Assembly: GCA_003524085.1 (NCBI GenBank)
Contig: DOEC01000006.1
Coordinates: 1,146 to 65,145 of the forward strand
Direction: 5' to 3'
Length of the DNA stretch: 64,000 nucleotides
Source: Bacillota bacterium
GTDB taxonomy: Bacteria > Bacillota_I > Bacilli_A > RF39 > UBA660
In this document: piece after piece, positions 1 to 46,412 of the stretch
Layout of the letters: every line of letters starts with the position of its first letter
Numbering within the stretch: position 1 is the stretch's first letter
Position numbers and translations under genes: made by a program
The notes under the pieces: generated by a model
What the model was told of the DNA's origin: nothing
The model's database searches: none
What the model saw: the letters and a program-made list of their open reading frames with translations, nothing else

Positions 1-607
1 CAGTGACTACCCCATGAAATTATACCAAAACTTAAAAATGCAATTGCAGCTAGTCCTCCAGCAAGTCCGTCTTCTCCATCAGTTATATTAACCGCATTTG
101 ATGAGCCTACTAAAAGGAATAATATAAAGAAGCCATATGCCCATTTAAGGTCAATATCTAAGTTTAAACTTGTTACTATTAAATGAGTACTTCCACCATC
201 TTTCATATAAATATAAAAGAAAACTATTGCTATTAATATTTGTACAATTAACTTTTGTACAACAGTTAATCCATCATTATGATGCCTTTTAATCTTCTTT
301 AAATCATCTGCTAGTCCAAGTAGACTATAACTAATAAATACAAATAGTATAATTATAAGTGAAGACGATATTTCAAGTGATCCTCTTATATAAAGAAGTA
401 ACATTGCAATTATAGTAGGAATTATAAATATAAGTCCCCCTATAGTTGGAGTTCCTTCCTTTTGTAAGTGTCTTTCTGTAATCATTGTACAGATAGTTTG
501 TCTAAAATTTAATTTTTTCAATAATGGTAAAAGAATTAAGCCTGCGAATACTGATAAAAAGAAACCAAGCATTAACCCCAAAATTGATTTTGCTAGTATT
601 AACATTG
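1..607 (-). CDS. mraY: Phospho-N-acetylmuramoyl-pentapeptide transferase MraY, partial (gene continues beyond the window start)
   Basis: The minus-strand translation starts at the ATG at 605-607 and reads MLILAKSILGLMLGFFLSV...GLADDLKKIK...GSSNAVNITDGEDGL. It aligns along its length with B. subtilis MraY. It is missing from the ORF track because it is truncated by the window edge. Confidence 0.8.
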
Positions 608-678
608 TGTCTTCCTCCTTACTTCTAATTATACACTACTAATCACTATTATTTCAAATGTTTTAGTATAACTAATCA

Positions 679-2598
679 TTAATTTAACATTAATTTTACA
701 ACCGACCCTTCTTTTACACGTTTCCCACTTTCAGGATTAGTCATTATTACAGTTTCACCACTTCCAGAATATTCTAGTTTAAAACCATTTAATAGTTGTT
801 TTGCTTCTTTTATAGTTTTTCCCCTTACATCTGGTACTGTGGTATACTTTGTCTCATACCAAAAGTATTCTCTTGGCATACCTTCAGTTGTTGATTCTAA
901 GTTGTGTAGGTTAATTATTCCGTTAAATACGTTTCTTGCAATCGGAGCTGAAGTAGAGCCACCATATTGTGTTGCGCCTTTTGCTCCATCTACTCCGATA
1001 TAAACAATATATTCTGGATCGTTAGCTGGCATAAAGCCTATAAATGACAAAATGTAATTTCCAATCATGTATCTTCCATCACTTCCAACTTTTTGTGCTG
1101 TTCCAGTTTTTCCGCCTATTCTATATCCTTCAATGTATGCATTATGTCCACTTCCATTTGCAACAACGCTTTCTAGTGCGTATTTGACTAAGTTGCTTGT
1201 TTCTTTTGTAATTAAATTTTCTTTTTTTAATGTAGGATATATTTCTTTTATGATTAGTCCAGTTTCTCTTTCACTAATGCTTTTCATTACATATGGTGTA
1301 TACATATTTCCGTCATTTATTATACTACTTACGGCTAAGACTTGCTGCATTGCCGTTACTGAGACACCTTGACCAAAACTAGTTGTCGCAAGTTCTAGTG
1401 GTCCTACTTTATCTAAGGGAAATATAATTCCTTTGCTTTCTCCATTTAGATCTATTCCAGTTTTCTTACCAAAACCAAATTTATCTATGTAGTTAAAAAG
1501 CACATCTTTCCCAAGTTTATTACCAAGAACTACAAAACCGGGGTTACAAGAGTTTTCTACTACTTCTAAAAACGTTTCTTCACCGTGACCTCCTGCTTTC
1601 CAACAATGTAAAGTACTACCTGCTACTTTTATTTTTCCTGTGTCATAGTACTTATCTTCAAATAAATTAACCTTTCCCTCATTTATGGATGCGGCTAGTG
1701 TTAAAATTTTGAATGTTGAACCGGGCTCAAAGCTACTCCAAATAGCTAAGTTTCTATTTATTACTTCTACACTATAACTCTGGTATTTCTCTGGTTCAAA
1801 ACTAGGACGACTAGCCATTGCAAGTATTTCTCCAGTTTTAGGTTTCATAACTATTCCAATTGCGCCTTCCATGTTGTACTTAACCTCGGCATTATCAAGT
1901 TCACTTTCTAACATTAGTTGTAAATCTAAATCAATTGTTAAATTTATATCTAAACCTGATACTGGACTTGCGTATACTTCAGGCACTGAAAGTTTTTTAC
2001 CTTTGCCATCACTATAATATTTAATACTTCCATCTGTACCTGTCAAGTATTTGTCATACATTAACTCTAGCCCACTTAAACCTTGATTATCTATTCCAAC
2101 ATAACCGATTACATGGCTAAGTGTTTTACCGTATGGATAATTTCTTTTAGTTTCTTTAAGTAAATATACTCCGTCATAGTTTAGTTCATTAATTTTTGAT
2201 GCGATTTCGTAACTTAAATCTCTTCCTTCTGGGTGTACTCTTTCTATTGATGTTTTTTTAGAAACGTGTTTATACATATCTTCATAGCTTACTCCAAGAA
2301 TTTCACTAATATTTTTTGCAACAGTTTCTTTATCTTTAATCTGTGCTGGAATTAATATAAGGCTAGAAGTTGTTACGTTTCCTGCTATTACTTTCCCGTT
2401 TCTATCAAGTATTCTACCACGGTCAGCTCCAACGGGTAAGTTTCTACTCCATAAACTATTAGCGAGTGTATTTAATTTTCTGTATTCTATAACTTGTATG
2501 TAAAAAACTTTAATAATGACTATTAAAAATATCGCTATTACTATTAGAAAAACCAATTTAATTCTACTATTTTGCGTATTTTGAAACATATAATTCAC
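679..2598 (-). CDS. Class B penicillin-binding protein (FtsI/SpoVD family transpeptidase) with a C-terminal PASTA domain
   Basis: It has an N-terminal TM segment and the SxxK (GSTFK), SGN-like and KTGT motifs. A C-terminal PASTA-like segment is present. It lies immediately upstream of mraY. Confidence 0.9.
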   Translation of the reverse strand: MNYMFQNTQNSRIKLVFLIVIAIFLIVIIKVFYIQVIEYRKLNTLANSLWSRNLPVGADRGRILDRNGKVIAGNVTTSSLILIPAQIKDKETVAKNISEILGVSYEDMYKHVSKKTSIERVHPEGRDLSYEIASKINELNYDGVYLLKETKRNYPYGKTLSHVIGYVGIDNQGLSGLELMYDKYLTGTDGSIKYYSDGKGKKLSVPEVYASPVSGLDINLTIDLDLQLMLESELDNAEVKYNMEGAIGIVMKPKTGEILAMASRPSFEPEKYQSYSVEVINRNLAIWSSFEPGSTFKILTLAASINEGKVNLFEDKYYDTGKIKVAGSTLHCWKAGGHGEETFLEVVENSCNPGFVVLGNKLGKDVLFNYIDKFGFGKKTGIDLNGESKGIIFPLDKVGPLELATTSFGQGVSVTAMQQVLAVSSIINDGNMYTPYVMKSISERETGLIIKEIYPTLKKENLITKETSNLVKYALESVVANGSGHNAYIEGYRIGGKTGTAQKVGSDGRYMIGNYILSFIGFMPANDPEYIVYIGVDGAKGATQYGGSTSAPIARNVFNGIINLHNLESTTEGMPREYFWYETKYTTVPDVRGKTIKEAKQLLNGFKLEYSGSGETVIMTNPESGKRVKEGSVVKLMLN

Positions 2599-2662
2599 CG
2601 CTTAAGTATATGTTGCTTTTATAAATTTATAACTTTAGATAGGATAGTCTCTTTTTGATTCC

Positions 2663-2747
2663 TTAAAATCTTACGGTTAAAAGTCTTAAAATCTTACGGT
2701 TGAAAATCTTAAAATCTTACGGTTAGAATTCTTAAAAGTGTACGGTT
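2663..2747. repeat. Four tandem 23-bp direct repeats (core TTAAAATCTTACGGTT plus a 7-nt spacer), iteron-like
   Basis: Read directly from the sequence. Copies 1-3 have a perfect 16-bp core and copy 4 is TTAAAAGTGTACGGTT. The array sits just upstream of a TTGAAA-N17-TAAAAT promoter. Confidence 0.8.
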
Positions 2748-2800
2748 ATTATTGAAAATATGCTTATTTTATGGTAAAATTAATACAGGAGATGAGATAT

Positions 2801-4072
2801 ATGACTTTAACAAAAGAAGGATATAAAGATAGATTAATTGATAAAAAAATTAATGAGTGTTTGAAAGTTTTTGGGGCTGTTTCTATAAATGGACCTAAAT
2901 GGTGTGGGAAAACTTGGACTAGTTTAAATCACGCTAAAACAGTTAAGTATATTAATACAAACGATAAAAAATTATTTAATCTAGCTCAAATGGATGTTAA
3001 TCAAATACTTGTAGGTGATTATCCAATACTAATAGATGAATGGCAATTAATTCCACAGATATGGGATAGTGTTAGAAGAAAATGTGATGAAGATAAAATT
3101 AAAGGAAAATTCATTTTAACTGGCTCAGCTGTAGAAAAAGAAAATACAGTAGACCACTCAGGTGCTGGAAGAATATGCAAGTTAAATATGAAAACAATGT
3201 CTCTTTATGAATCTGGTGACTCAGATGGTTCTGTTTCTTTAAATGATTTGTTTAAAAATGCTGAAATTAAAAATCAACCTACTAGGGAATTAACACTTCT
3301 AGAAATATCAGATTTAATATTAAAAGGTGGTTGGCCTGAAAATACTGATAAATCAGCGAAGGACTCACAATTGATAGCTAAAAGTTATATTGAAGATATT
3401 TTAGATAAAGATATTAACGAAATAGATGGCGTTCAAAGAGATAGAAATAAGATGGAAATGTTGTTAAAGTCTCTTGCTAGAAATGAGTCAACATTAGCTT
3501 CTAACGAAACTTTAATAAAAGATATTATAGAGAATGAATATGACTCAATAAATAAAGAAACTGTTGGAGAATATTTAAATGTTTTAGATAAATTATTTTT
3601 AATTGAAAACCAACAAGCTTTTAATCCAAACGTCCGTTCAAGAGATAATGTAGGAAAAACTGCAAAGAGACACTTGACTGACCCTTCTTTAGCTTGTGCT
3701 TTACTTGGCTTAAACTATAATAAATTAATTAACGATTTAAATACTTTTGGTTTCTTGTTTGAAGCTCTAGTTGAAAGAGACTTAAGGATTTATTCAGAGT
3801 ATAATGACGGGGAATTAAGACACTTTAGAAATAATGTTAGTGGTTTAGAAGTTGACGCTATTGTAATTAACGAAGATGGAGAATATGGTGCTGTTGAAAT
3901 TAAGTTAGGTGCTAACCAAATTGAGGAAGCTAAGGAAAACCTTTTAAAATTTTATGAAAAAGTTGATAAGAAACCCAAGTTTATGTGTATCATATGTGGT
4001 TTATGGGGAAATGTAGTTAAGGACCCTGTTAGTGGAATTTATATATTACCTATAACTTCATTAAGACCTTAA
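2801..4072 (+). CDS. AAA+ superfamily ATPase (COG1373 / DUF4143-type)
   Basis: The Walker A motif is GPKWCGKTW and an hhhhDE Walker B motif (ILIDEW) is present. Start was chosen at MTLTKEGY, which has an AGGAG RBS. The upstream promoter is TTGAAA-N17-TAAAAT. Confidence 0.8.
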   Translation: MTLTKEGYKDRLIDKKINECLKVFGAVSINGPKWCGKTWTSLNHAKTVKYINTNDKKLFNLAQMDVNQILVGDYPILIDEWQLIPQIWDSVRRKCDEDKIKGKFILTGSAVEKENTVDHSGAGRICKLNMKTMSLYESGDSDGSVSLNDLFKNAEIKNQPTRELTLLEISDLILKGGWPENTDKSAKDSQLIAKSYIEDILDKDINEIDGVQRDRNKMEMLLKSLARNESTLASNETLIKDIIENEYDSINKETVGEYLNVLDKLFLIENQQAFNPNVRSRDNVGKTAKRHLTDPSLACALLGLNYNKLINDLNTFGFLFEALVERDLRIYSEYNDGELRHFRNNVSGLEVDAIVINEDGEYGAVEIKLGANQIEEAKENLLKFYEKVDKKPKFMCIICGLWGNVVKDPVSGIYILPITSLRP

Positions 4073-4124
4073 AATGTGATTAAACAAAATCGCATTTTTT
4101 TATGTCATAAAAAAAGCATTTGAA

Positions 4125-4640
4125 TTAGTTACATTCAAACACTTTATCACCAAACACATATACATTATCACTTTTTTTAGCAGTGTATTCTTTATCTTTA
4201 TACTTAAAAGTTATTTTCTTTCCTTTAATCTTACTAATTGTAACGTCTTTTTTTAGATTATCCATTAATGTATCATCTATTTGATAATCTAATATACATC
4301 CACCTGTTCCTGTAGTATAAAGTTCTGCATCTATTTCTCTATATTTTCTAGCTAAAACTTTGTTTAACTCTTCATTTAATTTTCCAGTAAATACTGAATT
4401 TATAGTATCCTCTATTTTTTCATAACTGTTATATGTACTATTAGCTGTTTTATACCAATTAACATCTTTTAATGTGACTTTTGAGTCTTCATAAACAGGT
4501 AACCCTACTCCTTCAGTAATATAAATTGACGCATAAGCTTTTTCTAATGAGTCATAAAACATTGTAGTTTTTTCTTCATCAGTTGTTCCGCATCCAGTTA
4601 ATAACACAAGTGATAAAATAACAATAATAATCTTTTTCAT
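4125..4640 (-). CDS. Lipoprotein of unknown function
   Basis: A signal peptide is present with the lipobox LLTGC. Confidence 0.6.
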   Translation of the reverse strand: MKKIIIVILSLVLLTGCGTTDEEKTTMFYDSLEKAYASIYITEGVGLPVYEDSKVTLKDVNWYKTANSTYNSYEKIEDTINSVFTGKLNEELNKVLARKYREIDAELYTTGTGGCILDYQIDDTLMDNLKKDVTISKIKGKKITFKYKDKEYTAKKSDNVYVFGDKVFECN

Positions 4641-4698
4641 TTCTTCATACTCTCCTTTATATTAATAATTTTATCATATTTTTTTATATTTTTATAGA

Positions 4699-6612
4699 CT
4701 ATTTTAACAATTTTTCTATTTTTTCTAATAGTAAGTCAAAATCAAATCCACTAGTTTCTAATACTTCTCTTTCTCTATTAGAATATACATAATCATTTAA
4801 AGTTATTAAATATTTATCACTATAAACAAATTTATTCCAAATATTATCACTACTCATTTCAATAGCTACCACTTTAGCGCCTACTGGAAATAACTCTTGC
4901 TTATACTCTTTTTCATTCTTTAAATATAAGTTAACGCTTGGCATTGATACTACTCTTGTAAATAAGCCTCTGTTTTCTAATTCATCACTTATTCTTAAAG
5001 ATAATTCTACTTCATTACCTGTTGAAACTATTACACCACCAAGTCTACCTTTTTCTTTCTTAATGATGTATGCTCCTTTACTTACTTCATTGATAGAAGA
5101 ATTATCTAACATTCCTTTATATTTTTTAGTTATAATTAATGCACTTGGTATTTTTTTATTTATAATATAGTCCCAAGAACCAACTAATTCATTCACATCA
5201 GCAGATCTCATTACATTTAAATTAGGAATACTTCTTAAATCGCTTAATTCATTAACTACTTCAGTATATTTATTATTACTTGTATCTATAAAAGTATCGT
5301 TAACAAAGATATAACTTACTGATTTTTTAATTATACTAGACATTTTAAGTGAAGACTTCATGTAGCTAGAATTACTTAAAGTTGTTTCTATTACTGGTTT
5401 TAAGTTTAGTAAAGACATTCCATTTGCTATCATACCACCTGATAAATATTTAGTACCTAAATATATAGTTTTATCTTTATCAAATTCTATTTTAGTTTCA
5501 TTTTTATTATATAAATCAATATTAATCATTAACGGGCACATACTAGAAATAGCATTAAGTAAATTATTATTTGTTTCTCTTAAGTCTTCTTGCATATTTT
5601 CATCAAATCCAACTTTGATATTTTTAATATTCATTTTAAAGTTATCTTCTTCTAATAAACTTATTATTTTTTTCTTTTCTTCATTCACTTCAATAATCTT
5701 ATTATATGTACTTACCCATTCATTATAGTAAGTGTTATTTTTTTCTAAGATATTTTTAAATTCATTATATGAACTTGCTGATATGTGATATGGCACTTGT
5801 GTAATACTCATTTTTTCTTTAACTAAAGCTAAATCGTTTTCACTTATTACATACTCATGACCCTTTGGACTTGCTTGCATACTTGTACCTATTGCTATCA
5901 TTGTTTTAATTTCAATTATGCTAGGTTTACCACTTTCTTTAGCTCTTGTAATAGCTTTATCTATTAAAGTATAATCTTCTGCATTAGTTACTGTTTCAAC
6001 AAAATAGCCTAGGCTTTCTAAATATTTAAGTTTGTTTGTGTAGCTAGATGTATCTTTTTTACCATCCACTGTAGTTTCAAATGAATTATATAAAATAATT
6101 AGATTATTTAAGTTTTCTTTAGCAGCTACTTCTAAAGATTCCATTGCTACAGGACTAGAGATGCACTCATCTGTTACTAATGTATAAGTGTAGAAATTAA
6201 TTAGTTCTTTACCAAGCAACTTTTGCATGTATTTACTACCAAGTGTAACTCCTACAGCCAAAGACAACCCTTCACCATTTTTTCCAGTTGTACTTTCAAT
6301 ACCAATACTAGGGTTAAGTTCAGGATACACACTTAGTTTACCACTTCCATAATTTTTAACATCTTCTAGTGTTATGTTGTAGCCTGAATATAAAAGTATA
6401 CTATATAATAAAGGTGCAGCACCTGGTGTGGACAATATAAATCTGTCTCTATTTATCCAAGTTGGATCAGTACTTACAAAATGCATGTGTTTTGTAAATA
6501 CCGTATATATTGTCGGTGCTAGAGAAAGCGTTAGTCCAGCGTCACCTAGTCCCCTATTATAAATCATGTCTACACTCAAACTTCTTAAAGAATTAATTAA
6601 CTTAGTATCCAT
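4699..6612 (-). CDS. Transketolase-family protein with degenerate catalytic and TPP-binding residues (putative pseudoenzyme)
   Basis: It aligns over its full length with transketolase, including the shared RDRF(V/I)LS and RVVSMPS blocks. However the motifs SGHPG, GHGS, HSKTPGHPE, GDG...N and DGPTHQ are all replaced. Confidence 0.7.
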   Translation of the reverse strand: MDTKLINSLRSLSVDMIYNRGLGDAGLTLSLAPTIYTVFTKHMHFVSTDPTWINRDRFILSTPGAAPLLYSILLYSGYNITLEDVKNYGSGKLSVYPELNPSIGIESTTGKNGEGLSLAVGVTLGSKYMQKLLGKELINFYTYTLVTDECISSPVAMESLEVAAKENLNNLIILYNSFETTVDGKKDTSSYTNKLKYLESLGYFVETVTNAEDYTLIDKAITRAKESGKPSIIEIKTMIAIGTSMQASPKGHEYVISENDLALVKEKMSITQVPYHISASSYNEFKNILEKNNTYYNEWVSTYNKIIEVNEEKKKIISLLEEDNFKMNIKNIKVGFDENMQEDLRETNNNLLNAISSMCPLMINIDLYNKNETKIEFDKDKTIYLGTKYLSGGMIANGMSLLNLKPVIETTLSNSSYMKSSLKMSSIIKKSVSYIFVNDTFIDTSNNKYTEVVNELSDLRSIPNLNVMRSADVNELVGSWDYIINKKIPSALIITKKYKGMLDNSSINEVSKGAYIIKKEKGRLGGVIVSTGNEVELSLRISDELENRGLFTRVVSMPSVNLYLKNEKEYKQELFPVGAKVVAIEMSSDNIWNKFVYSDKYLITLNDYVYSNREREVLETSGFDFDLLLEKIEKLLK

Positions 6613-6672
6613 ATTTTCACCTTCTTATTATAATTTAATTATAACACATGAGAAAATACTAAGCAACTATTT

Positions 6673-6828
6673 TTATGCGTAGTAAACTTCTACCTCTATT
6701 GGAGTTTTCACATTACTAGCATTTACATCTTCTATCTTTTTAGTAAGCATAAATGCAAGTATCGCTATAATAAAATAGAATAACAATATACCTTTCATAC
6801 TATTAAATAATTTTTCAACTTTTTCCAT
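6673..6828 (-). CDS. Small hydrophobic single-TM protein (51 aa), not in the ORF track
   Basis: The ATG at 6828 is preceded by AAGGAGAG at 8-nt spacing. The translation is MEKVEKLFNSMKGILLFYFIIAILAFMLTKKIEDVNASNVKTPIEVEVYYA. Confidence 0.35.
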   Translation of the reverse strand: MEKVEKLFNSMKGILLFYFIIAILAFMLTKKIEDVNASNVKTPIEVEVYYA

Positions 6829-6900
6829 TTCATTCACTCTCCTTATGCACCTATTTTATAACATATATTAGTTTGTGTCAATATTAAATCGCAAAAATGT

Positions 6901-6929
6901 TTGACAAATTTACATTTGTGTGTTAAACT
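6901..6929 (+). promoter_or_regulatory. Putative lexA promoter (TTGACA-N17-TAAACT) with an inverted repeat ACAAAT-N4-ATTTGT in the spacer (candidate operator)
   Basis: The hexamers and the inverted repeat at 6904-6919 are read directly. No canonical GAAC-N4-GTTC Cheo box is seen. Confidence 0.35.
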
Positions 6930-6952
6930 ATTATCAGAAAGGATGTGAAACT

Positions 6953-7570
6953 ATGGAAAAATTAACTAAAAAACAAGAAGAAGTCTTGACAGTTATTAAA
7001 AAATACATAGCTGAACACGGCTATGCTCCAAGTGTAAGAGAAGTTTGTGAACTTATGAATTTAAGTTCAACTGCAACTGTATTCGTACATATGAGACATC
7101 TTATGAAGAAAGGATATTTAAAACAAACAGATAATAAATTTAGAACACTAGAAGTTTTAGTACCAAACGAATACTTAGAAAAAAATGAAGACGTTGTAAA
7201 CGTTCCACTACTTGGAAAAGTTACATGTGGTAACCCTATTGAAGCTATTGAGTTTCCTGATGAATACATAGCTTTACCAGCATTCATGATACCTAAGAAA
7301 GAAGAAATATTTACATTAAAAACTGAAGGAATGAGCATGAAGAACGTTGGAATATATGATGGAGATATAGTTATAGTAAAAAGACAAAAGAATGCAAAAA
7401 ATGGAGATTATGTTGTAGCACTTGATGAAAATGGATTTACTACATTAAAGACATTTTATAAAGAAAATGGATATTTTAGACTACAACCAGAAAACGAAAC
7501 TATGGACCCTATTATACTTGATAAAGTTGAGATACTTGGAATTGCAATAGGTCTATATAGAAAGTTTTAG
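6953..7570 (+). CDS. lexA: LexA repressor (S24 peptidase)
   Basis: The N-terminal wHTH and the C-terminal Ser/Lys dyad region (GMSMKN...IVIVKRQ) are present. It aligns along its length with B. subtilis LexA. Start was chosen at MEKLTKKQ. Confidence 0.9.
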   Translation: MEKLTKKQEEVLTVIKKYIAEHGYAPSVREVCELMNLSSTATVFVHMRHLMKKGYLKQTDNKFRTLEVLVPNEYLEKNEDVVNVPLLGKVTCGNPIEAIEFPDEYIALPAFMIPKKEEIFTLKTEGMSMKNVGIYDGDIVIVKRQKNAKNGDYVVALDENGFTTLKTFYKENGYFRLQPENETMDPIILDKVEILGIAIGLYRKF

Positions 7571-8418: not shown

Positions 8419-9105
8419 TTAAACTTTCATTAAACTTTTTAGCCTTTTTATAGCTTTTTTTTCAATTCTTGAGATATAGCTTTGACTTATACCTAACATA
8501 TCAGCTACTTCTTTTTGAGTATATTCTTTTTGATTATATAAGCCATACCTAAGTGTTAGTATTTCTTTATCTCGTTTATTTAAGTTTTCTATTTCTTTAA
8601 TTAGAAGTTCTTTATCAACAATACTTTCATATTCCTTTTCTACTATATCATCAGGTGTTCCTAAAACATCTTCTAAATGTAGTTCGTTACCATCTTGATC
8701 TAAATTAATAGAGTCTTCAAATGAAATTTCAACTTTCCTTCTTTTATTCTTTCTTAAAAACATAAGTATTTCATTATCAATACATCTACTAGCGTATGTT
8801 GCTAGTTTTATGTTCTTGTCTAGTTTATATGTCTTAACTCCTTTGATAAGCCCGATTGTACCAATGCTAACTAAATCTTCTAAGTCATACATTGTATTAT
8901 CATACTTTTTAGCAAGAAAAACTACAAGTCTTAAGTTGTGCTCGATTAGTTTGTTTCTTGCATGCATATCTCCATTATTACTCTTAATGACTAGCTCTTC
9001 TTCCATGCTTTTTTCTAAAGGTGGTGGAAGTATATCGGTACTTCCTAAGTAAAAAACTTTTTCTTTATCCTTAAACAAACTACTTATAAAATCAAATATT
9101 TTCAT
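8419..9105 (-). CDS. sigE: RNA polymerase sporulation sigma factor, pro-sigma-E type
   Basis: The pro-sequence has the ILPPPL motif. The body resembles B. subtilis SigE (HARNKLIEHNLRLV, SIGTIGLIKG, ISQSYISR). It sits directly after spoIIGA. Confidence 0.85.
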   Translation of the reverse strand: MKIFDFISSLFKDKEKVFYLGSTDILPPPLEKSMEEELVIKSNNGDMHARNKLIEHNLRLVVFLAKKYDNTMYDLEDLVSIGTIGLIKGVKTYKLDKNIKLATYASRCIDNEILMFLRKNKRRKVEISFEDSINLDQDGNELHLEDVLGTPDDIVEKEYESIVDKELLIKEIENLNKRDKEILTLRYGLYNQKEYTQKEVADMLGISQSYISRIEKKAIKRLKSLMKV

Positions 9106-9106
9106 G

Positions 9107-9895
9107 TTATCCCTCCATTAATAAATAATTTAATAAAACTTCTACTTTGTTAGACTTTAACTTATCTTTTACTACACCTACTACTATATTCTTTTTTACT
9201 CCAATACCTTCTATAAATATTTTCTTAACTTTGTAACACCTCAACAATCCACCCTCATTAATACTTTGGTATGGTATATAGAAAAATGGAGTGTTTTTAA
9301 TTATACTTTCAAACTTTTTAGAATTAGTTATGATAACTGGTCTATTTGTATATGGATCTATTAAAGTGTTTCCTGTGTCCATGTAGCCTATGAGTTCTAG
9401 TTTACTTTCATTAATATAGATATCCACTTTATAATATAAACTATTAATTTCACGAATAACTTTCATTTGTTTATAATAGATATACATTATAATTGGAGTA
9501 CATATTAATATAAAGATGTAATTAATACTTATGCCTTTATGAAAAAATACCATACCAATATTCTTATAACTAAAGCTTACGTTTAAATAATATATAAACC
9601 CTCCTAAGATTATGCTTATTAAATAAAAATATACCAAGTTAGTTATAAAATACTTAAAGTCAGAATAACCAAATGTTATGAGTATTATCAAAACTGATAA
9701 AAATACCTTAAGTAAAAAGAGTGTTAAAGTAGTTAAGGGCACGAATAAAACAATGATAGTTATACTTCCTAGTAAAGAACCCAATACTATTTTTTTAATA
9801 GAAGTTCTTCTTTTAAGGACAATACTTGTAGTAAGTAAAAGTATAAAATCAAAAAAGAAGTTTAAAAATATTATTAAGTCAACATACACTTTCAT
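9107..9895 (-). CDS. spoIIGA: Sigma-E processing peptidase SpoIIGA
   Basis: It is a polytopic membrane N-terminus with a C-terminal aspartic protease DTGN motif (GYMDTGNTLIDP). It is adjacent to sigE. Confidence 0.8.
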   Translation of the reverse strand: MKVYVDLIIFLNFFFDFILLLTTSIVLKRRTSIKKIVLGSLLGSITIIVLFVPLTTLTLFLLKVFLSVLIILITFGYSDFKYFITNLVYFYLISIILGGFIYYLNVSFSYKNIGMVFFHKGISINYIFILICTPIIMYIYYKQMKVIREINSLYYKVDIYINESKLELIGYMDTGNTLIDPYTNRPVIITNSKKFESIIKNTPFFYIPYQSINEGGLLRCYKVKKIFIEGIGVKKNIVVGVVKDKLKSNKVEVLLNYLLMEG

Positions 9896-9954: not shown

Positions 9955-10761
9955 TTATTTTCTTTTTAATCCTTTAGAATATAATTCGTTATATGACCCA
10001 TCCATTAAAGCTATTTGCATGTCTTCATAAATAGACTTTAATTCTTCTAAAGCAATATCTTTAAACATAGTCTGTCCATATATTTCTTCATTAACAGGCT
10101 CTAAAATATTTAAGTGACTCTTTAAAGTACTAGCTATTAATCTAAAGTTAAAGTAATTAAACTTACCTTTTTCATTGATAAACTTATGATAGAAATCAAT
10201 TAATGGACTAATAGATACTAATGTAGGATCATTATATTTTAGTGAGTCTCTTAAACATCTAAGTAAATCAAACTCATCTATACTGTCTCTTGAAGATGAC
10301 ATTATTTCTTTGCTTTTAATTAAGCTTTCAATATATTTTATGTCTCTTGAGTTTTCTCTAAGAGTTTTTTCTAACATTCCTCGGTTTAACAAATCCTTGT
10401 CTTTCTTATAAAATATTGGAAGTGTTCTAACATCTTTTTTAGCACGATACATAATTACTAATTTATGATTATTTCTTAAGTCAACGTCATAGTTAGACTT
10501 TAGTTCAAAGTCATTATTAAATCTAGTAGTAAAATTATCAATTTCTTCTAGTGTTGAAGGCATGGTTACTTTTAAATATTTAGTAAATTCTGCATAGCCT
10601 TCACTATAATGAAAGACTAAATTTCCAAGAAAATACTTGTTTTTAGCATCATCATTATATTTAGCAATTAACCTTTTAATTTCAGAAGTACTATACTTTT
10701 TAAAACTTCTAGTTTCAACCCCAGCCTTAATTCCAATACTATATCTATTAACTTTACCCAT
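9955..10761 (-). CDS. Hypothetical protein
   Basis: This is a long ORF with coding-like composition. No recognisable motif was found. Confidence 0.45.
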   Translation of the reverse strand: MGKVNRYSIGIKAGVETRSFKKYSTSEIKRLIAKYNDDAKNKYFLGNLVFHYSEGYAEFTKYLKVTMPSTLEEIDNFTTRFNNDFELKSNYDVDLRNNHKLVIMYRAKKDVRTLPIFYKKDKDLLNRGMLEKTLRENSRDIKYIESLIKSKEIMSSSRDSIDEFDLLRCLRDSLKYNDPTLVSISPLIDFYHKFINEKGKFNYFNFRLIASTLKSHLNILEPVNEEIYGQTMFKDIALEELKSIYEDMQIALMDGSYNELYSKGLKRK

Positions 10762-10845
10762 AAGACACCCCTTATCTAGTTAAAATTATACCATATTTTG
10801 TACAATATGTCAACTTTACACATAAAGGTACTTTATTTGAATATG

Positions 10846-10932
10846 ATTAATTTATGATAATTCTTAGCTGCTACTTTAGCATTTTCATTTATTATTTCAG
10901 TCTTTATATTACTTAAATATTTTTCTTCCATA
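10846..10932 (-). pseudogene. 5' remnant of a further DUF1016/YhcG-like gene copy
   Basis: The minus-strand translation MEEKYLSNIKTEIINENAKVAAKNYH then breaks off. The nucleotides are near-identical to the 5' ends of the downstream paralogs. Confidence 0.5.
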
Positions 10933-10943
10933 AGCTTTTCCTC

Positions 10944-11852
10944 CTAACTAATTTGCACAGTTTTATTTATTTTAAATTCTACTATAGTTACTTGATTATC
11001 TTTTACGTAATGAGCTTCAAACTTATTTACTGACTTTGTTATAATTATTCCAATAGTACTATTTTGAGTTATATTTTTTAAGTGTTCGTCAATATAGTTC
11101 ATATACGTTTTTATTTGACCATAGTCACTTTTCTTATATTCTCTTGATTTTATCTCTACTACACAATATCTACTTTCAACCACATTATAAAATAGATAGT
11201 CTATATAATTCTTTTTGTCTCCAATGTTAAGTTTATATTCTCTTCCGACGTAAAAATATCCACCGCCTAATTGTTTCATAAAACTATCTAAGTTTTCATA
11301 AATAATTTCTTGTAATATTTTTTCAGTATAAACTTCATAACTTTTATTAGGTGTTAACACTATTGGACTGGGGACACTTTGAATTAAAGAAAGTTCTTCT
11401 TTATTTAAAAGACTTTCTTTTGCTTCAGTTGAGAGTCTACCATACTCATTACTCTTTATTCTTTCAGCTAATGCTCTTTTACTTAAATTATCTCGTTTAG
11501 TAATATGAATATAATACTTAATTTCTTTGATATCTCTTAGTGATAATAAAATCTTGTAATGACTCCACGTCAATTGTCGCTCCAGTGGAGCGACTTTTTG
11601 AATTAATAAATAAAATTGTTGTATCTTATATAAATCTTTTTCCTTATATCCACTTCCAAATTCCTTAGTTAAAATACTTGCATATTTTTTTACTATTCCT
11701 TCTCCATAGTGTTTACCTGCTTCTACTAGTTCCCTTCCTATATTATAATTCATTGTAAGTTTTACATTATTTATCTGATAATTCTTAGCTACTACTTTAG
11801 CATTTCCATTTATTATTTCAGTCTTTATATTACTTAAATATTCGTCTATCAT
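10944..11852 (-). CDS. DUF1016/YhcG-family PD-(D/E)XK nuclease-like protein, tandem paralog 1
   Basis: The N-terminus has DUF1016_N hallmarks (LTWSHY, KRALAERI). The C-terminus has a PD-(D/E)XK-like D...EIK block (NYIDYLFYN...CVVEIKSREY). Confidence 0.75.
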   Translation of the reverse strand: MIDEYLSNIKTEIINGNAKVVAKNYQINNVKLTMNYNIGRELVEAGKHYGEGIVKKYASILTKEFGSGYKEKDLYKIQQFYLLIQKVAPLERQLTWSHYKILLSLRDIKEIKYYIHITKRDNLSKRALAERIKSNEYGRLSTEAKESLLNKEELSLIQSVPSPIVLTPNKSYEVYTEKILQEIIYENLDSFMKQLGGGYFYVGREYKLNIGDKKNYIDYLFYNVVESRYCVVEIKSREYKKSDYGQIKTYMNYIDEHLKNITQNSTIGIIITKSVNKFEAHYVKDNQVTIVEFKINKTVQIS

Positions 11853-11864
11853 AAATTTTCCCTC

Positions 11865-12773
11865 CTAACTAATTTGCACAGTTTTGTTTATTTTAAATTC
11901 TACTATAGTTACTTGATTATCTTTTACATAATGTGCTTCAAACTTGTTTACTGATTTTGTTATAATTATTCCAATAGTATTATTTTGAGTTATATTTTTT
12001 AAGTGTTCGTCAATGTAGTTCATATACGTTTTTATTTGACCATAATCGCTTTTTCTATATTCTCTTGCTTTTATTTCAACTACACAATATCTACTGTCAA
12101 CTACATTATAAAATAGATAATCTATATAATTCTTTTTGTCTCCAATGTTAAGTTTATATTCCCTACCAATAAAAGCGTAGCCTCCACCAAGTTGATGCAT
12201 AAAATCTTCTATATTTTCAAAGATTATTTCTTGTAATATTTTTTCAGTATAAACTTTATAACTTTTATTAGATGTCAACACTATTGGACTTGGGACACTT
12301 TGAATTAAAGAAAGTTCTTCTTTATTTAAAAGACTTTCTTTTGTTCCATCTGAAAGTCTATCATACTCATCACTTCTTATTATTTCAGCTAATTTTCTAT
12401 AACTTAAATTATCTCTTATAGAAATATTAGTATAATAATTGATTTTATTGATATCTTTTAAAGGTAAAAGTAATCTTATGTGTTCCCAAGTCAATTGGTG
12501 CGGCAATGCCGCACCTTTTTCAAAAAGAACATAAAATTGACGCATTCTCTTTAAATTAGATACAGAATATCCACTTCCAAATTCCTTAGTTAAAATACTT
12601 GCATATTTTTTTACTATTCCTTCTCCATAGTGTTTACCTGCTTCTACTAGTTTCCTTCCTATATTATAATTCATTGTAAGTTTTACATTATTTATCTGAT
12701 AATTCTTAGCTGCTACTTTAGCATTTCCATTTATTATTTCAGTCTTTATATTACTTAAATATTCGTCTATCAT
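11865..12773 (-). CDS. DUF1016/YhcG-family PD-(D/E)XK nuclease-like protein, tandem paralog 2
   Basis: It has the same architecture as paralog 1. The N- and C-terminal thirds are near-identical to paralog 1 and the central region is divergent. Confidence 0.75.
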   Translation of the reverse strand: MIDEYLSNIKTEIINGNAKVAAKNYQINNVKLTMNYNIGRKLVEAGKHYGEGIVKKYASILTKEFGSGYSVSNLKRMRQFYVLFEKGAALPHQLTWEHIRLLLPLKDINKINYYTNISIRDNLSYRKLAEIIRSDEYDRLSDGTKESLLNKEELSLIQSVPSPIVLTSNKSYKVYTEKILQEIIFENIEDFMHQLGGGYAFIGREYKLNIGDKKNYIDYLFYNVVDSRYCVVEIKAREYRKSDYGQIKTYMNYIDEHLKNITQNNTIGIIITKSVNKFEAHYVKDNQVTIVEFKINKTVQIS

Positions 12774-12785
12774 AAATTTTCCCTC

Positions 12786-13694
12786 CTAACTAATTTGCAC
12801 AGTTTTGTTTATTTTAAATCCTACTATAGTTACTTGATTATCTTTTACATAATGAGCTTCAAACTTATTTACTGATTTTGTTATAATTATTCCAATAGTA
12901 CTATTTTGAGTTATAGTTTTCAAGTGTTCGTCAATGTAGTTCATATACGTTTTTATTTGGCCATAATCGCTTTTCTTATACTCTCTTACTTTTATTTCAA
13001 CTACACAAAAACAGTTCATTTTGTAATTGTATAAAAGATAGTCTATATAATTCTTTTTATCTCCAATATTGAGTTTATATTCTCTACCAATAAAAGAGTA
13101 TTCTCCACCAAGTTGATGCATAAAATCTTCTATATTTTCAAATATTATTTCTTGTAATATCTTCTCATTATAAAATTCATAGCTTTTATTTGGTGTCAAT
13201 ACTATCGGACTGGGTATGCTTTGAATTATTGAAAGCTCTTCTTTGTTTAAAATACCCTCTTTCGTTTCAGTTGAAAGTCTGCCATACTCATTACTTCTTA
13301 TTCTTTCAGCCAATGCTCTTTTGCTTAAATTATCTCGTTTAGTAATACTAATATAATACTTGATTTCTTCTACATTTTTTAATGGTAAAAGTAATTTATA
13401 ATGAGACCAAGTCAAAAGTTGCCCCACTGGAGCAACTTTTTGACTTAAATCATAAAATTGCTTCATTCTTGTTAATTCTGTAAAAGTATATCCCTTACCA
13501 AATTCTACCGTTAATTCCTTTGCATATTTTTTTACTATTCCTTCTCCATAATGTTTACCAGCTTCTGCTAGTTCCTTACCAATATTATAGTTCATTGTAA
13601 GTTTTACATTGTTTATCTGATAATTTTTAGCTATTACTTTAGCATTACCATTTATTATTTCATTCTTTATATTTTCTAAATAATTGTCTATCAT
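12786..13694 (-). CDS. DUF1016/YhcG-family PD-(D/E)XK nuclease-like protein, tandem paralog 3
   Basis: It has the same architecture as paralog 1. It is preceded by the conserved about 90-bp leader. Confidence 0.75.
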   Translation of the reverse strand: MIDNYLENIKNEIINGNAKVIAKNYQINNVKLTMNYNIGKELAEAGKHYGEGIVKKYAKELTVEFGKGYTFTELTRMKQFYDLSQKVAPVGQLLTWSHYKLLLPLKNVEEIKYYISITKRDNLSKRALAERIRSNEYGRLSTETKEGILNKEELSIIQSIPSPIVLTPNKSYEFYNEKILQEIIFENIEDFMHQLGGEYSFIGREYKLNIGDKKNYIDYLLYNYKMNCFCVVEIKVREYKKSDYGQIKTYMNYIDEHLKTITQNSTIGIIITKSVNKFEAHYVKDNQVTIVGFKINKTVQIS

Positions 13695-13696
13695 AA

Positions 13697-13790
13697 ATTT
13701 TTCCTCCTAATATATTTATTCGACAAAAAACGCGAAAAGTCTTTTTTTTATTTTGACTTTACGCGAAATTCGACGTGTTTTTTTACATGT
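13697..13790 (-). promoter_or_regulatory. Conserved leader element (copy 1) upstream of paralog 3; it contains paired ACGCGAAA and TCGAC motifs
   Basis: It is near-identical to 26205-26300, as read directly from the sequence. Confidence 0.5.
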
Positions 13791-13925
13791 TTTGTGTAAA
13801 CTAAGTTATAAAAAAAGAAAGGATAAACAACTTATAAAAGCTATTTGCTCCTTCCCCATAAAAATTGATGCTTTAGCAAAAGTAAGCATCAATTATTTTT
13901 TATTTTTTTTTGATTATTTGATTTT

Positions 13926-19440: not shown

Positions 19441-20370
19441 TTATATTTTAGTATAGCATTTGGTTTTCAAAAAACTTTTAATTTCTTTTATATTTTTACT
19501 TTCATAATAATTAATTAAAAGAAGTTTAAATTCATCAGTTAATTCTGAAGGTATACTAATTATTCCTAAACCATTTTTAATAAGATAATGATTAGCAAAT
19601 ATAACTGCAGTTCTTTTGTTACCATCTACATATATTTGTTTTTTCATCGTATATAAAAGTAGTTCTATTGCTTTGTCAACTTTATTATTTTTTTTATTTA
19701 TAATTTTGTTAAGTTCGTCTTTAACATCACTTTCAATGGGTATACCAGGCATCCAAGAAGTTCCACCTATTTTAACTGGAACGCTTCTTATTTTGCCAGC
19801 TGTGCTATAAAATCCTTCTATACATAGTTTATTAATTTCACAAAGTAAATTATAGTCTGTTGGTGAAAGTAATACTCCTTCACTTAGAACAAATTCCCAT
19901 GCATGTTTTAAATCAAGAACTTTTAAAACGTCAGTAGAAGATATTCCACTTACTTCCCCACCTTCAATTATTGTTTCAGTAAGAGCAAAAGTTGTTGATA
20001 TTCCTTCTAAGACTGCTTGTTTGTAAATTGTATCAACTAAATTTCTTTTTGCAAAGTCAACATTTAATTTAACTTTATCGCTAAGAACAAAATTATCTAC
20101 ATTTTCTTCTTTTAAAATATTATTTAATCTTTTTATCTCTTTTTTTAATTCTTTAACTTTTATATTATTATTTAGTATTAGGTTATATAATTCATCACTA
20201 TATTCTCCTACATATCTACTTATTAGTTTTCCATTATCTCTATAGTGAACATAAATATATTTATTACATTCCTTATCTCTAACTTCAATTGAGCCATGTA
20301 TAATAGAAGAAACTTGAGTTTCTAATCTTTTTTTATCATCTAACATACCAATTAATTCAACATTTTTCAT
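19441..20370 (-). CDS. Fic/Doc-family protein with a Doc-type DGNKR motif in which the motif His is replaced by Gln
   Basis: The C-terminal motif reads QIYVDGNKRTAVIFANHYL, against the Doc consensus HxFx(D/N)(A/G)NKR. Confidence 0.45.
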   Translation of the reverse strand: MKNVELIGMLDDKKRLETQVSSIIHGSIEVRDKECNKYIYVHYRDNGKLISRYVGEYSDELYNLILNNNIKVKELKKEIKRLNNILKEENVDNFVLSDKVKLNVDFAKRNLVDTIYKQAVLEGISTTFALTETIIEGGEVSGISSTDVLKVLDLKHAWEFVLSEGVLLSPTDYNLLCEINKLCIEGFYSTAGKIRSVPVKIGGTSWMPGIPIESDVKDELNKIINKKNNKVDKAIELLLYTMKKQIYVDGNKRTAVIFANHYLIKNGLGIISIPSELTDEFKLLLINYYESKNIKEIKSFLKTKCYTKI

Positions 20371-25384: not shown

Positions 25385-25483
25385 TTGATTTCTGTCAAAA
25401 AGGTGTGACAGTTTCGCACTTTTTTGAAAACATCTTATATGAGCCATTTAAATTTCCAACCACTGGTTGGAATTTTTTTGAAA
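25385..25483 (+). other. Two strong hairpins followed by a T-run: CTGTCAaaaaggtgTGACAG and TTCCAACCAcuGGTTGGAA+TTTTTTT, a terminator-like structure with no upstream plus-strand CDS
   Basis: Both structures are perfect inverted repeats read directly from the sequence. Confidence 0.3.
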
Positions 25484-25559
25484 TTTGTTAGATGGTATTA
25501 TTATAGTACTAGGTACCATTTCTTTTGCTTGAGTTTCTGTTTTTTTCTTTTAATTTGAT

Positions 25560-25997
25560 TTCTTGTTTTCAAAGATAATTTATCGTATTCATTAATTTTT
25601 ATTTTTTTCTCTAAGTGCACGCTCACTTAAATTACCTCGTTTAAGTTATATTAATGTAATACTTGATTTCTCCTAAGTTTTTTAAAGGTAAAAGTAATTT
25701 ATAATGTGACCAAGTCAATTGGTCATCCAATGGATGACCTTTTTCAATAAAATTATGGAATAATCTCATGTATTTAAGATTTGTAATCCCGTAATTTGTA
25801 CCAAATTCTTTTGTTAATTCTTTTGCATACTTTTTAACTATACCTTCGCCGTAGTGTTTACCAGCTTCTGCTAATTCCTTTCCAATATTATAATTCATTG
25901 TTAGTTTTACATTGTTTATCTGATAATTCTTAACTATTAATTTAGCATTACCATTTATTATTTCACTCCTTATATTCTCTAAATAATTTTCTTCCAT
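25560..25997 (-). pseudogene. Fourth DUF1016/YhcG-like copy, frameshifted and 3'-truncated
   Basis: The intact 118-aa N-terminal ORF (MEENYLENIRSEIINGNAK...LTWSHYKLLLPLK) stops at 25638-25640. At that point a 1-nt insertion is present relative to paralog 3. Similarity decays downstream. Confidence 0.7.
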
Positions 25998-26204
25998 GAT
26001 TACATCCTTTCACCATTACAATTGCGTCTGTTTTAAATCTAGTGACAAAAATATTTTGTTTTAATATTCACGTATGTTTTCAAAATTAGTTTTCTCATAT
26101 TTTAAATATGAAATATAAACTTAGATAAATTCTTAATAAGAAATCTACTAGTTATCTTAAAAAATAATCTCATAATTTACTCTCCTTTCTAGGAAAGGCT
26201 TTTT

Positions 26205-26300
26205 AACCCTCCTAATATATTTATTCGACAAAAAACGTGAAAAGCCTTTTTTTATTTTAACTTTACGCGAAATTTAACGTGAAATTTTACACAAAAATGT
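26205..26300 (-). promoter_or_regulatory. Conserved leader element (copy 2), about 200 bp upstream of the truncated fourth copy
   Basis: It is near-identical to 13697-13790. The short TTACA...TGTAA segment is inverted relative to copy 1. Confidence 0.5.
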
Positions 26301-30894: not shown

Positions 30895-31818
30895 ATGAAA
30901 AATATATTAAAATCCACATTATTTTTAAGTATACTTTTAGTTATCATTATATATATGGGAAAAATCTTTACTCCTAAAGATAACACTTTAGAAAGTGGGA
31001 TGAATGAAGTAAGAGCTAATGGAATACTTGGAGAAAAAGATGATATTGATGTTATTATAATTGGAGACTCTTTAACATACAGTTCATTTATACCAATTGA
31101 GATGTATAAAGAATACGGGTTTACTTCATATGTAATGGGTACTCATGCACAAAGAAGTCATGATACTTATAAGTTACTTAAGAATGCTCTTAATTATCAA
31201 AAACCTAAAGTTGTAGTACTTGAAACTAATCTTTTATTTAGAAAATATAGTTTTAATAGAGATATGCTTAGTAAGCTTGAAACAATACTACCTTTCTTTG
31301 ATTATCATAATAGATGGAAAAATCTAAGTTTTAAAGATTTTACTAGTGAAATTAATTATACTTACACTGACCCGACTAAAGGATATATGTTAAAGAAAAG
31401 TGTTAAAAGTGGAAAGACTTATAATTATATGAAAAAAGATAGTAAAGTTACTCATATAGTTAATAGAAATTATGTTTATTTAGAGAAAATAAAAAAGTTA
31501 TGCAGTGAAAATAATATCAAGCTAATTTTGGTAAGCGCATCAAGTGAAAGGAATTATAACTTTAGTAAACATGAAAGTATTGAAAAATATGCAACCAAGA
31601 ATAAAATAGACTATATTGATTTAAACTTAGAAGATGTTAAAATTGACTGGGAAAAAGATACTACTGATAAAGGAGATCATTTGAATTATTTGGGAGCTTT
31701 AAAAGAAAGCAAGTTTTTTGGTAATATTTTAAAAGATAGGTATAATCTGGTAGATAAAAGAGGTACACTAGAAAGTTGGGATAAACTAGAAATGGTGTAC
31801 AATAAAAAAGCTAGATAG
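30895..31818 (+). CDS. Extracytoplasmic SGNH/GDSL-like protein (DltD/AlgJ-like partner of the MBOAT)
   Basis: It has a signal-anchor N-terminus and GDSL block I (VIIIGDSLTYSS). Confidence 0.6.
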   Translation: MKNILKSTLFLSILLVIIIYMGKIFTPKDNTLESGMNEVRANGILGEKDDIDVIIIGDSLTYSSFIPIEMYKEYGFTSYVMGTHAQRSHDTYKLLKNALNYQKPKVVVLETNLLFRKYSFNRDMLSKLETILPFFDYHNRWKNLSFKDFTSEINYTYTDPTKGYMLKKSVKSGKTYNYMKKDSKVTHIVNRNYVYLEKIKKLCSENNIKLILVSASSERNYNFSKHESIEKYATKNKIDYIDLNLEDVKIDWEKDTTDKGDHLNYLGALKESKFFGNILKDRYNLVDKRGTLESWDKLEMVYNKKAR

Positions 31819-32170
31819 TATAACATACTACACTAGCTACTGCATAAACTTCATCATGCGTAATTGAAAGGCTAAATTTTAGTCTTTCTTTTTTTATGTA
31901 TTCACTTAGTTTTCCATAGAAATTAAAGTAAGGCATGCCATTATTATGTAACACTTCTATATCAAGGATACTATATACGCTTAAATTTACTCCTAAGCTT
32001 TTTAAAAGAGCTTCTTTGGCAGCGAATACTCCCGCCTTTGTTTCTATGCTTTTATGACTAGCAAAATACTCTAATTCACTACTTGTAAACACACTACTTA
32101 ATTTTTTTATTTTGTTTATACTTTCAACCCTGACTATATCTATTCCATTAGTTATCATTTTTTTCCTCAA
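31811..32170 (-). CDS. acpS: Holo-[acyl-carrier-protein] synthase (4'-phosphopantetheinyl transferase)
   Basis: The GIDIVRV and FAAKEALLKSLG motifs are present and the protein is about 119 aa. Confidence 0.85.
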   Translation of the reverse strand: MRKKMITNGIDIVRVESINKIKKLSSVFTSSELEYFASHKSIETKAGVFAAKEALLKSLGVNLSVYSILDIEVLHNNGMPYFNFYGKLSEYIKKERLKFSLSITHDEVYAVASVVCYTI

Positions 32171-35929: not shown

Positions 35930-35939
35930 TGGTGATATT

Positions 35940-36759: not shown

Positions 36760-36793
36760 TTGTTTTCTCCTAGAAATATTGTATCAATAAATT

Positions 36794-39310: not shown

Positions 39311-39387
39311 GGGGAATTAGCTCAGTTGGCTAGAGCACCTGCCTTGCACGCAGGGGGTCGCGGGTTCAAGTCCCACATTCTCCACCA
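39311..39387 (+). tRNA. tRNA-Ala (UGC)
   Basis: A cloverleaf can be drawn by eye. The anticodon loop is CUUGCAC, the G3:U70 Ala identity pair is present, the CCA is encoded and there is one T-stem mismatch. Confidence 0.85.
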
Positions 39388-46207: not shown

Positions 46208-46212
46208 ATAAA

Positions 46213-46408: not shown

Positions 46409-46412
46409 ACAA

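Follow-up and report, generated by a model that had tools for sequence, protein, structure and literature searches.

An intragenic hairpin conserved across the YhcG/DUF1016 nuclease family, and a tandem mosaic array of three family members in a Bacillota genome

The stretch analysed here, 64,000 nucleotides (nt) of contig DOEC01000006.1 from a Bacillota bacterium and referred to as the window, carries on its minus strand a co-oriented array of three paralogous YhcG/DUF1016 PD-(D/E)XK nuclease genes, named g3, g2 and g1 in the order in which they are read. Each gene contains a short GC-rich hairpin at the same codons, and this hairpin was found to be ancient: its position and structure are kept throughout the DUF1016 family, whereas its sequence is not. 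Conservation of position and structure without sequence implies that the hairpin is selected or maintained at the nucleic-acid level. The explanation of array and hairpin favoured here is held, as a whole, with moderate confidence.

Within the window the hairpin consists of an 8-bp stem and a 3-nt loop at gene nt 259-277 (codons 87-93), inside a patch that varies between the copies and just upstream of a conserved QLTWSH motif. The stems differ in sequence from copy to copy: GTCGCTCC-ACT-GGAGCGAC in g1 (11576-11594, minus strand) and GGTGCGGC-ATT-GCCGCACC in g2 (12497-12515, minus strand) form perfect 8-bp stems, and GTTGCTCC-AGT-GGGGCAAC in g3 (13418-13436, minus strand) forms an 8-bp stem with one G.T pair. 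The stem-loops within g1 and g2 were first flagged by a terminator scan. Comparable perfect hairpins in the 64-kb window are confined to the DUF1016 sites, to a vestige beside a truncated fourth copy (copy 4) and to one tRNA. In an AlphaFold model the residues encoded by the hairpin form a low-confidence loop between two helices. Moreover, perfect hairpins persist in dead copies, namely copy 4 of the window, L001c and the second copy of L022 (L numbers designate related loci), as well as the vestige at 25454-25472.

Relatives with 42-98% protein identity carry the hairpin at the same codons. Covariation was assessed in 64 distinct sequences, aligned without gaps and anchored on codons, in which the 8-bp helix was Watson-Crick paired in 93.9% of cells, as against 27-42% when the partner was slid along. 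Double-sided changes were present at all eight pairs (200 cells), the observed score was reached in none of 500 shuffles, and G-U pairs were nearly absent. Two tandem neighbours in L035 differ over 48 nt only by one compensatory pair and a loop base. A perfect hairpin of at least 7 bp was present at the site in 88 of 107 distinct genes, compared with 0.56 per kb elsewhere in the genes. When synonymous codons were resampled for the same peptides, such a hairpin appeared in 0.47% of trials, and selection at the protein level therefore cannot account for it.

The conservation extends far beyond close relatives. All 20 diverse DUF1016 genes with which the comparison was widened, 19 of them plasmid-borne and the other yhcG of E. 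coli K-12, have a hairpin at the same position; they span eight phyla (Pseudomonadota, Actinomycetota, Cyanobacteriota, Bacteroidota, Fusobacteriota, Acidobacteriota, Campylobacterota and Bacillota) and GC contents of 27-69%. Stems measure 7-16 bp in the plasmid-borne genes (7-18 bp with E. coli included), the loop is nearly always 3 nt, and the loop-closing positions are frequently complementary too, as in a true 9-N-9 palindrome. The stem of E. coli K-12 yhcG (L095, NC_000913 3367827-3368954) is GGCAAAGATTTGGCAGAC-GCT-GTCTGCCAAATCTTT, with 17 of 18 positions paired. Two hairpins are present at nt ~300-420 of that gene, the second being shorter; they code for IHQTMSGEL and KIWQTLSAKS and are separated by about 20 extra codons, which form part of a larger insertion. 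This insertion, of ~40 amino acids (aa), begins right after the hairpin in the E. coli, Burkholderia and Acidisarcina lineage, which suggests a palindrome-associated duplication or insertion. Searches of the window region and of seven diverse loci gave no Rfam match, even with permissive thresholds, and a literature search found no paper linking DUF1016 or YhcG with a palindrome or hairpin. A family-wide intragenic hairpin of YhcG/DUF1016 thus appears to be so far undescribed.

The array in which the window hairpins lie was shown to comprise three intact genes, arranged head-to-tail with a period of 921 nt. These are g3 (12786-13694, type 'KVAPVGQL'), g2 (11865-12773, type 'KGAALPHQ') and g1 (10944-11852, type 'KVAPLERQ'), each encoding 302 aa on the minus strand and each recognised by its open reading frame (ORF), Pfam and PADLOC PDC-S02 matches and catalytic residues. 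The same 12-nt spacer, GAGGGAAAATTT, with a Shine-Dalgarno sequence, separates g3 from g2 (12774-12785) and g2 from g1 (11853-11864), and a variant, GAGGAAAAGCTT, lies downstream of g1 (10932-10943), all on the minus strand. Beyond it is a remnant of a further copy (10833-10931, minus strand), a 32-aa ORF that matches the 5' end of g1 and g2 at 91-92% identity over its first 78 nt and shows no homology thereafter. The three complete 302-aa genes, the 12-bp spacers and the 5' remnant had all been described in the original prediction, made from the letters of the sequence, and ORF and repeat analyses bear this description out. The three genes are probably co-transcribed. The same array with its remnant recurs in metagenomes assembled independently from other samples (L008, L010 and L011) and partly in L012 and L013; the array is identical in four independent assemblies, and the remnant was found in every syntenic one. 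A recent duplication produced by assembly, which had been raised as a possible refutation, is ruled out by the 13-17% nucleotide divergence between copies and by the agreement of independent assemblies.

Membership of the family is well supported for all three proteins. The DUF1016_N domain (PF17761) scores 88-96 bits in g1-g3 against a gathering cut-off of 32.8, and the YhcG_C PDDEXK domain (PF06250) 100-108 bits against 32.5, with E-values from 1e-25 to 1e-31; in addition, PADLOC PDC-S02 profile hidden Markov models match the proteins over their full length (E 1e-52 to 1e-56). The catalytic residues E205, D218 and E233-I-K235 are intact in g1, g2 and g3 and invariant in diverse relatives. 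The AlphaFold (AF2) model has a mean predicted local distance difference test score (pLDDT) of 70.8, rising to 80-94 in the C-terminal domain and poor over residues 1-67. A Foldseek search with the modelled C-terminal domain retrieved EndoMS/NucS (5gke, 2vld; E 4e-4), and also MGME1 and Hjc, so that this domain, as modelled, is a restriction-endonuclease-like PD-(D/E)XK fold. Domain scores, catalytic residues and fold match together confirm the earlier assignment to the DUF1016/YhcG PD-(D/E)XK nucleases. No solved structure was found that is related in sequence to the g1-g3 proteins, and no relatives were found on viral contigs.

Identity between the copies is distributed unevenly along the gene. 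Over nt 1-180, g1 and g2 are 98-100% identical and g3 is ~88% identical to them, and the near-identical N-terminus that had been reported for all copies is thus true of g1 and g2 but not of g3. At the C-terminal end every pair is 93-98% identical over the final ~190 nt. All pairs fall to 58-78% nucleotide identity at nt 181-330. The divergence had been attributed to a single central segment; that segment is real (nt 175-354, aa 59-118), but a second divergent patch exists at nt 552-690 (aa 185-230). The first patch, delimited by identity, synonymous divergence (dS) and column entropy, lies at 13341-13520 in g3, 12420-12599 in g2 and 11499-11678 in g1 (minus strand) and belongs to the helical N-domain, and the second adjoins the catalytic D...ExK residues. 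The closest pair also switches along the gene, from g1 with g3 at nt 331-420 to g2 with g3 at nt 541-630, g3 then being divergent at nt 631-720, and this switching identifies the gene as a genuine mosaic. In codons 1-58, dS is 0 between g1 and g2; it is 0.5-0.7 in codons 59-118 and as high as 1.8 in codons 185-230. Tracts of zero dS beside old divergence are the mark of old paralogs with patchy gene conversion; on the evidence of these alignments, the ends of the copies have been homogenised patch-wise and the two patches have remained type-specific. The ratio of non-synonymous to synonymous divergence (dN/dS) is 0.05-0.27 in the conserved ends and 0.5-0.8 in the first variable patch, which is raised yet still below 1. 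Seven codons of that patch are constrained by the nucleic-acid palindrome, and part of the protein variation there is therefore a by-product of hairpin covariation. The same constraint complicates the proposal, made at the outset, that the central segment is a target-recognition module.

The mosaic can be followed through the wider family, of which more than 120 protein clusters at 80-98% identity were found in metagenomes. Among 135 distinct 302-aa members the block types reassort, with an excess of 6-11 combinations at most block boundaries; codons 59-86 and 87-93 are linked almost perfectly, with an excess of only one. This reassortment, together with the changing best pair, sustains the mosaic or cassette-like character originally ascribed to the array. 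Arrays of 2-4 tandem paralogs occur in 29 of 104 related loci, none of which holds two members of one type, and the variable types are discrete and shared across strains. The suggestion that such an array is unusual for this nuclease family is contradicted by these loci, and by an earlier report of five DUF1016 paralogs in two clusters in Rickettsia (PMC1189080). Comparison between strains, which had been recommended as a check, did reveal differences in composition and copy number: other array compositions occur in L001, L003, L015 and L018, and in a Hadza metagenome-assembled genome (MAG) the copy-4 locus (L001) has at least two full copies and a pseudogene and the array locus (L003) is differently composed. 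Tandem DUF1016 paralogs were also seen on other gut-metagenome contigs, four in L075 (2979-6573) and three each in L046 and L052, with a different hairpin sequence in each paralog. In the contig L009, g2-g1 are fused to the first copy of a different DUF1016 locus, together with its upstream flank (1-7064, 94.6% identical to L004), as a result either of recombination between loci or of chimeric assembly at the repeat; L017 has only one copy, itself chimeric, at 1.4x coverage. As each may be a real rearrangement or a mis-assembly, both were kept out of the primary evidence. Sequence comparison indicates that the family grows and shrinks by tandem duplication and unequal crossing-over, types being swapped as blocks between copies and strains. 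The variation of the array is standing, recombining paralog diversity rather than a programmed switch.

The truncated, frameshifted copy that had been predicted 12 kb from the array is present at 25480-25997 (minus strand), where a 118-aa ORF (25641-25997) is followed by a frameshifted tail recognisable to ~25480. Two loci whose flanks are 99% identical to the window (L022 and L044) have at this site an intact 302-aa gene and a degenerate second copy, and copy 4 is a fusion of the two, joined at GAAATCAAGTATTAYATTAATATAAC (gene nt ~330-356). Copy 4 is accordingly read, by comparison of these sequences, as the product of an unequal-crossover deletion in which the nuclease domain was lost. Its hairpin, GGTCATCC-ATT-GGATGACC (25721-25739, minus strand), is perfect though the gene is dead. 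Just beyond the tail is a further perfect 8-bp hairpin, TTCCAACC-AGT-GGTTGGAA (25454-25472, minus strand), with the flanking pattern of the family and weak similarity to family aa 90-101 (E 0.02). This is probably the last vestige of another decayed copy, the palindrome having outlasted the gene.

Upstream of the array lies a conserved leader of ~100 nt (13703-13800, minus strand), composed of an extended -10-like box, TGTAAAAA (TGTAAAAW), a terminator-like hairpin of 11 bp (CGCGTAAAGTC...GACTTTTCGCG), a T6 run and a ribosome-binding site (RBS). A second leader copy, 83-92% identical to 13703-13787, stands upstream of copy 4 (26208-26291, minus strand), and the leader also precedes the first DUF1016 gene in L003, L004, L009, L021 and L023, which are different chromosomal sites. 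From its sequence it looks like a terminator or attenuator controlling the array. Between the second leader and the start of copy 4 are ~200 nt (26009-26207) with a small ORF, MRLFFKITSRFLIKNLSKFIFHI, an insert also seen in L022 and L044.

The surroundings of the array are ordinary chromosome, with genes for a penicillin-binding protein (PBP), transketolase, LexA, NusG/SecE, sigE-spoIIGA, an arginine deiminase operon, an ABC transporter, a tRNA cluster, a DinB-like polymerase and MiaB-like proteins. Directly after the remnant is a gene for a 268-aa protein (9955-10761), which is kept beside the array in all syntenic assemblies and has no match in Pfam, NCBIfam or PADLOC; its promoter (10785-10813) is a perfect sigma-70-type TTGACA-17-TATAAT with a TG extension. 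The spoIIGA and sigE genes occupy 8419-9895, and the host is an uncultured low-GC gut Firmicute whose closest public genomes are Clostridium sp. CAG:628 and gut MAGs labelled as uncultured 'Bacilli'. The window also contains 12 clustered tRNA genes (46131-47224, minus strand) and a separate tRNA-Ala (39311-39387). The only loosely defence- or toxin-like genes nearby are one with a Fic/DOC domain (19441-20370), ~6 kb from the array, and, farther away, one for an AAA_14/DUF4143 ATPase (2771-4072). The array does not lie in a defence island, the neighbours being housekeeping genes with only the Fic gene ~6 kb away.

A role of the array in defence is plausible by analogy, as the family has been linked to type I restriction-modification (R-M) operons and mobile elements (PMC9881135, PMC3424549) and is a PADLOC candidate. 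That the paralogs are nucleases of differing substrate preference acting on foreign DNA is a reasonable possibility suggested by their sequences, though one that falls somewhat short of probable. As regards the hairpin, the reading to which the balance tips, if only slightly, is that it is a structure-specific cis element which limits expression of the nuclease, either through universal machinery or through binding by the nuclease itself. A cis element that accompanies the family through every phylum should have a partner that is equally universal, which points to the transcription, translation or replication machinery or to the product of the gene, a member of a superfamily in which structure-specific nucleases abound. 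The hairpin would limit or tune the output of full-length nuclease from within the gene. It might do so through the universal transcription and translation machinery, or the structure-specific nuclease might bind the hairpin in the gene or mRNA that encodes it. Template-switching between the arms during replication would keep the palindrome perfect, and would turn a single arm mutation into a paired change, so that the encoded protein loop would become hypervariable. Template switching has been reported to create, maintain and repair perfect stems and to give rise to paired substitutions in one step (PMC8794818), which fits the tandem neighbours of L035 with their one compensatory pair and loop base. 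It is likely to contribute whatever the function of the hairpin.

The more specific proposal, that the encoded nuclease, a relative of Holliday-junction resolvases and NucS, recognises the hairpin or a cruciform in the DNA or mRNA that encodes it, whatever the sequence, is tentative and on balance unlikely. Were it true, self-recognition would amount to autoregulation or self-marking, and it would explain why the element accompanies the gene from phylum to phylum and is free to covary. The correction of the arms by template switching would then also be an inherent source of paired codon changes in a surface loop.

Several points weigh against this overall reading of array and hairpin. In a published test of one PDC-S02 representative, T4, T5 and T7 were not restrained (bioRxiv 10.1101/2024.09.26.614923), the neighbours of the array are housekeeping genes and form no defence island, and both the nuclease activity and the defence phenotype of the family are, for the genes considered here, predictions. 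The cis-regulatory role of the hairpin is likewise a prediction from sequence. A U-tract follows the stem on the sense strand in only 1 of 90 genes; the T-run of the antisense strand is frequent only in the low-GC clade and could merely reflect lysine codons. The scarcity of G-U pairs, the frequent extension of the palindrome through the loop-closing positions and its persistence in pseudogenes would also fit a functionless, self-maintaining palindrome. The dN/dS of the variable patch is below 1, and diversifying (positive) selection is thus not demonstrated. Finally, some of the strain comparisons use metagenome contigs that may be chimeric or collapsed (L009 and L017).

Foremost among the alternatives is neutral tandem duplication with concerted evolution, according to which the paralogs are redundant, their central constraint is relaxed, and the hairpin is a functionless ancestral palindrome kept by intrastrand template-switch correction, with frame constraints blocking its deletion. 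Such an explanation is considered unlikely, even though it accommodates a good deal: dN/dS lies below 1 throughout, G-U pairs are nearly absent and the palindrome often takes in the loop-closing A/T, decayed pseudogenes still have perfect hairpins, the encoded residues fall in a tolerant loop, and the template-switch mechanism is documented (PMC8794818, PMC8604942). However, retention of the hairpin in 20 of 20 genes from eight phyla, at GC contents of 27-69% and with stems of up to 14-18 bp, is hard to understand without selection, and comparable hairpins are almost lacking elsewhere in the 64-kb window and number 0.56 per kb in the rest of the genes. Moreover, the arrays hold only different types, and these are conserved across strains, which argues for purifying selection within each type.

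It has also been considered that the hairpin is an intrinsic terminator of antisense transcription, which would end a cis-antisense RNA that represses the toxic nuclease gene or would keep convergent transcripts out of its 5' half. Intragenic reverse promoters and antisense RNA are known to regulate genes of restriction endonucleases, EcoRI among them, and in the AT-rich clade 68 of 90 genes have a T5 run after the stem on the antisense strand. The terminator scan flagged the sites in g1 and g2 on the plus strand, and the region has three terminator-like sites, one of them in the leader, where 0.4 would be expected. This explanation is nevertheless judged improbable, as the high-GC phyla have no such T-run, proteobacterial, actinobacterial and cyanobacterial genes lacking it on either strand, and a conserved lysine codon in AT-rich genomes can account for the A-run. 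Promoter-like motifs occur everywhere in the AT-rich genes, and no positional signal was found for a conserved antisense promoter downstream of the hairpin. A -1 frameshift signal was considered separately and rejected: no conserved slippery heptamer precedes the stem at a distance of 5-9 nt, the A-run, which other phyla lack, comes within 0-1 nt of the stem, and the zero frame runs on into the conserved LxWxH motif.

That the palindrome is a hotspot of recombination or gene conversion, with a cruciform or replication-stalling hairpin driving mosaic exchange, would be in keeping with its central position in the variable patch, with the types D and D', which match upstream of the hairpin and differ downstream, and with the ~40-aa insertion right after the hairpin in E. 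coli, Burkholderia and Acidisarcina and the second hairpin in E. coli. This is very unlikely, since only 1 of 75 endpoints of identical tracts between diverged copies fell within nt 241-300, albeit in a small survey, the hairpin type hardly ever separates from the block upstream of it (excess of one combination), and the deletion that produced copy 4 has its junction at gene nt 330-356, away from the hairpin.

Programmed diversification, in which a shufflon, silent cassettes of the pilS kind or a diversity-generating retroelement (DGR) would switch nuclease specificity on demand, is scarcely credible: the copies are indeed mosaic, the remnant and truncated copy could resemble silent cassettes, and a GC-rich hairpin beside variable sequence recalls the one downstream of DGR variable regions, but every copy is a full-length direct repeat that has its own RBS and has kept its catalytic residues, no invertase, integrase or reverse transcriptase was found within ~15 kb, the array is unchanged in four independent assemblies, and the types are discrete and common to strains rather than generated anew, their differences not being adenine-specific. 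The likeness to shufflons drawn in the original prediction is not supported, on the same grounds. No recombinase domain was detected in ORFs at 7.6-29 kb or in the scanned ORFs at 29-41.4 kb, a scan that did not take in those of 100 aa or more at 31811-32170, 34253-34570 and 35874-37102. A search for inverted repeats or opposite partial cassettes returned only direct repeats and one chance inverted match of 31 nt (71%). A DGR was rejected specifically, with no reverse transcriptase among the neighbours and copy differences involving all bases, as was a polymorphic toxin/immunity array, the variable part being N-terminal and helical and the 12-nt spacers containing no intervening ORFs.

The array documents how a defence-associated nuclease family diversifies, by tandem duplication, patchy conversion, block reassortment and unequal crossing-over. 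The hairpin matters more than the array, YhcG/DUF1016 being one of the widespread uncharacterised families, with members in E. coli K-12, on many plasmids and within type I R-M operons. A hairpin fixed at one codon position in eight phyla, whatever its sequence, is a strong and unused clue to the control of the gene or to the target of its product, and it can be tested directly in E. coli K-12 yhcG. It also provides an unusually clean natural case in which nucleic-acid-level selection, or self-maintenance of a palindrome, shapes a protein loop.

Comparison with known systems places the array within the YhcG/DUF1016 family (PF17761 and PF06250, COG4804; PDC-S02), with which it shares both domains, the E...D...ExK residues, the PD-(D/E)XK C-domain and a length of ~300 aa. 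What sets it apart is its setting among housekeeping genes, instead of within a type I R-M operon or a mobile element, and its three to four diverged copies, arranged strictly in tandem downstream of one common leader. A statistical enrichment of DUF1016 genes has been reported beside type I R-M specificity loci that undergo programmed inversion (PMC9881135), and hsdS shufflons resemble the array in that they comprise several copies, partly identical, which vary in the middle and are conserved at the ends. Unlike them, the array has no recombinase or inverted repeats, its copies are complete and co-directional, and it varies by ordinary homologous recombination and unequal crossing-over over evolutionary time. 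Concerted evolution, as in tuf, rRNA operons and surface-protein families, offers a parallel in its tracts of zero dS beside old divergence, strain differences in copy number and a deletion junction in a homologous stretch, but two patches of the array escape homogenisation as discrete types found across strains. The hairpin itself is comparable with intrinsic terminators and with the recoding hairpins of dnaX and IS3-type elements in being a GC-rich intragenic stem-loop of 7-14 bp, preceded in the low-GC clade by an A-run (a T-run on the opposite strand). It differs from these in that it has no sense U-tract and no slippery heptamer, the frame runs straight through, G-U pairs are nearly absent, and it is kept across phyla whose terminators are built differently. 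Quasi-palindrome hotspots and coding palindromes, such as those of Nematomorpha mitochondria (PMC6649704; PMC8794818), likewise have perfect arms and paired changes without wobble intermediates within coding sequence. The present case, however, is a single short palindrome at one codon position of one family across the bacterial domain, and its bacteria-wide retention points to function rather than to a lineage-specific mutational quirk.

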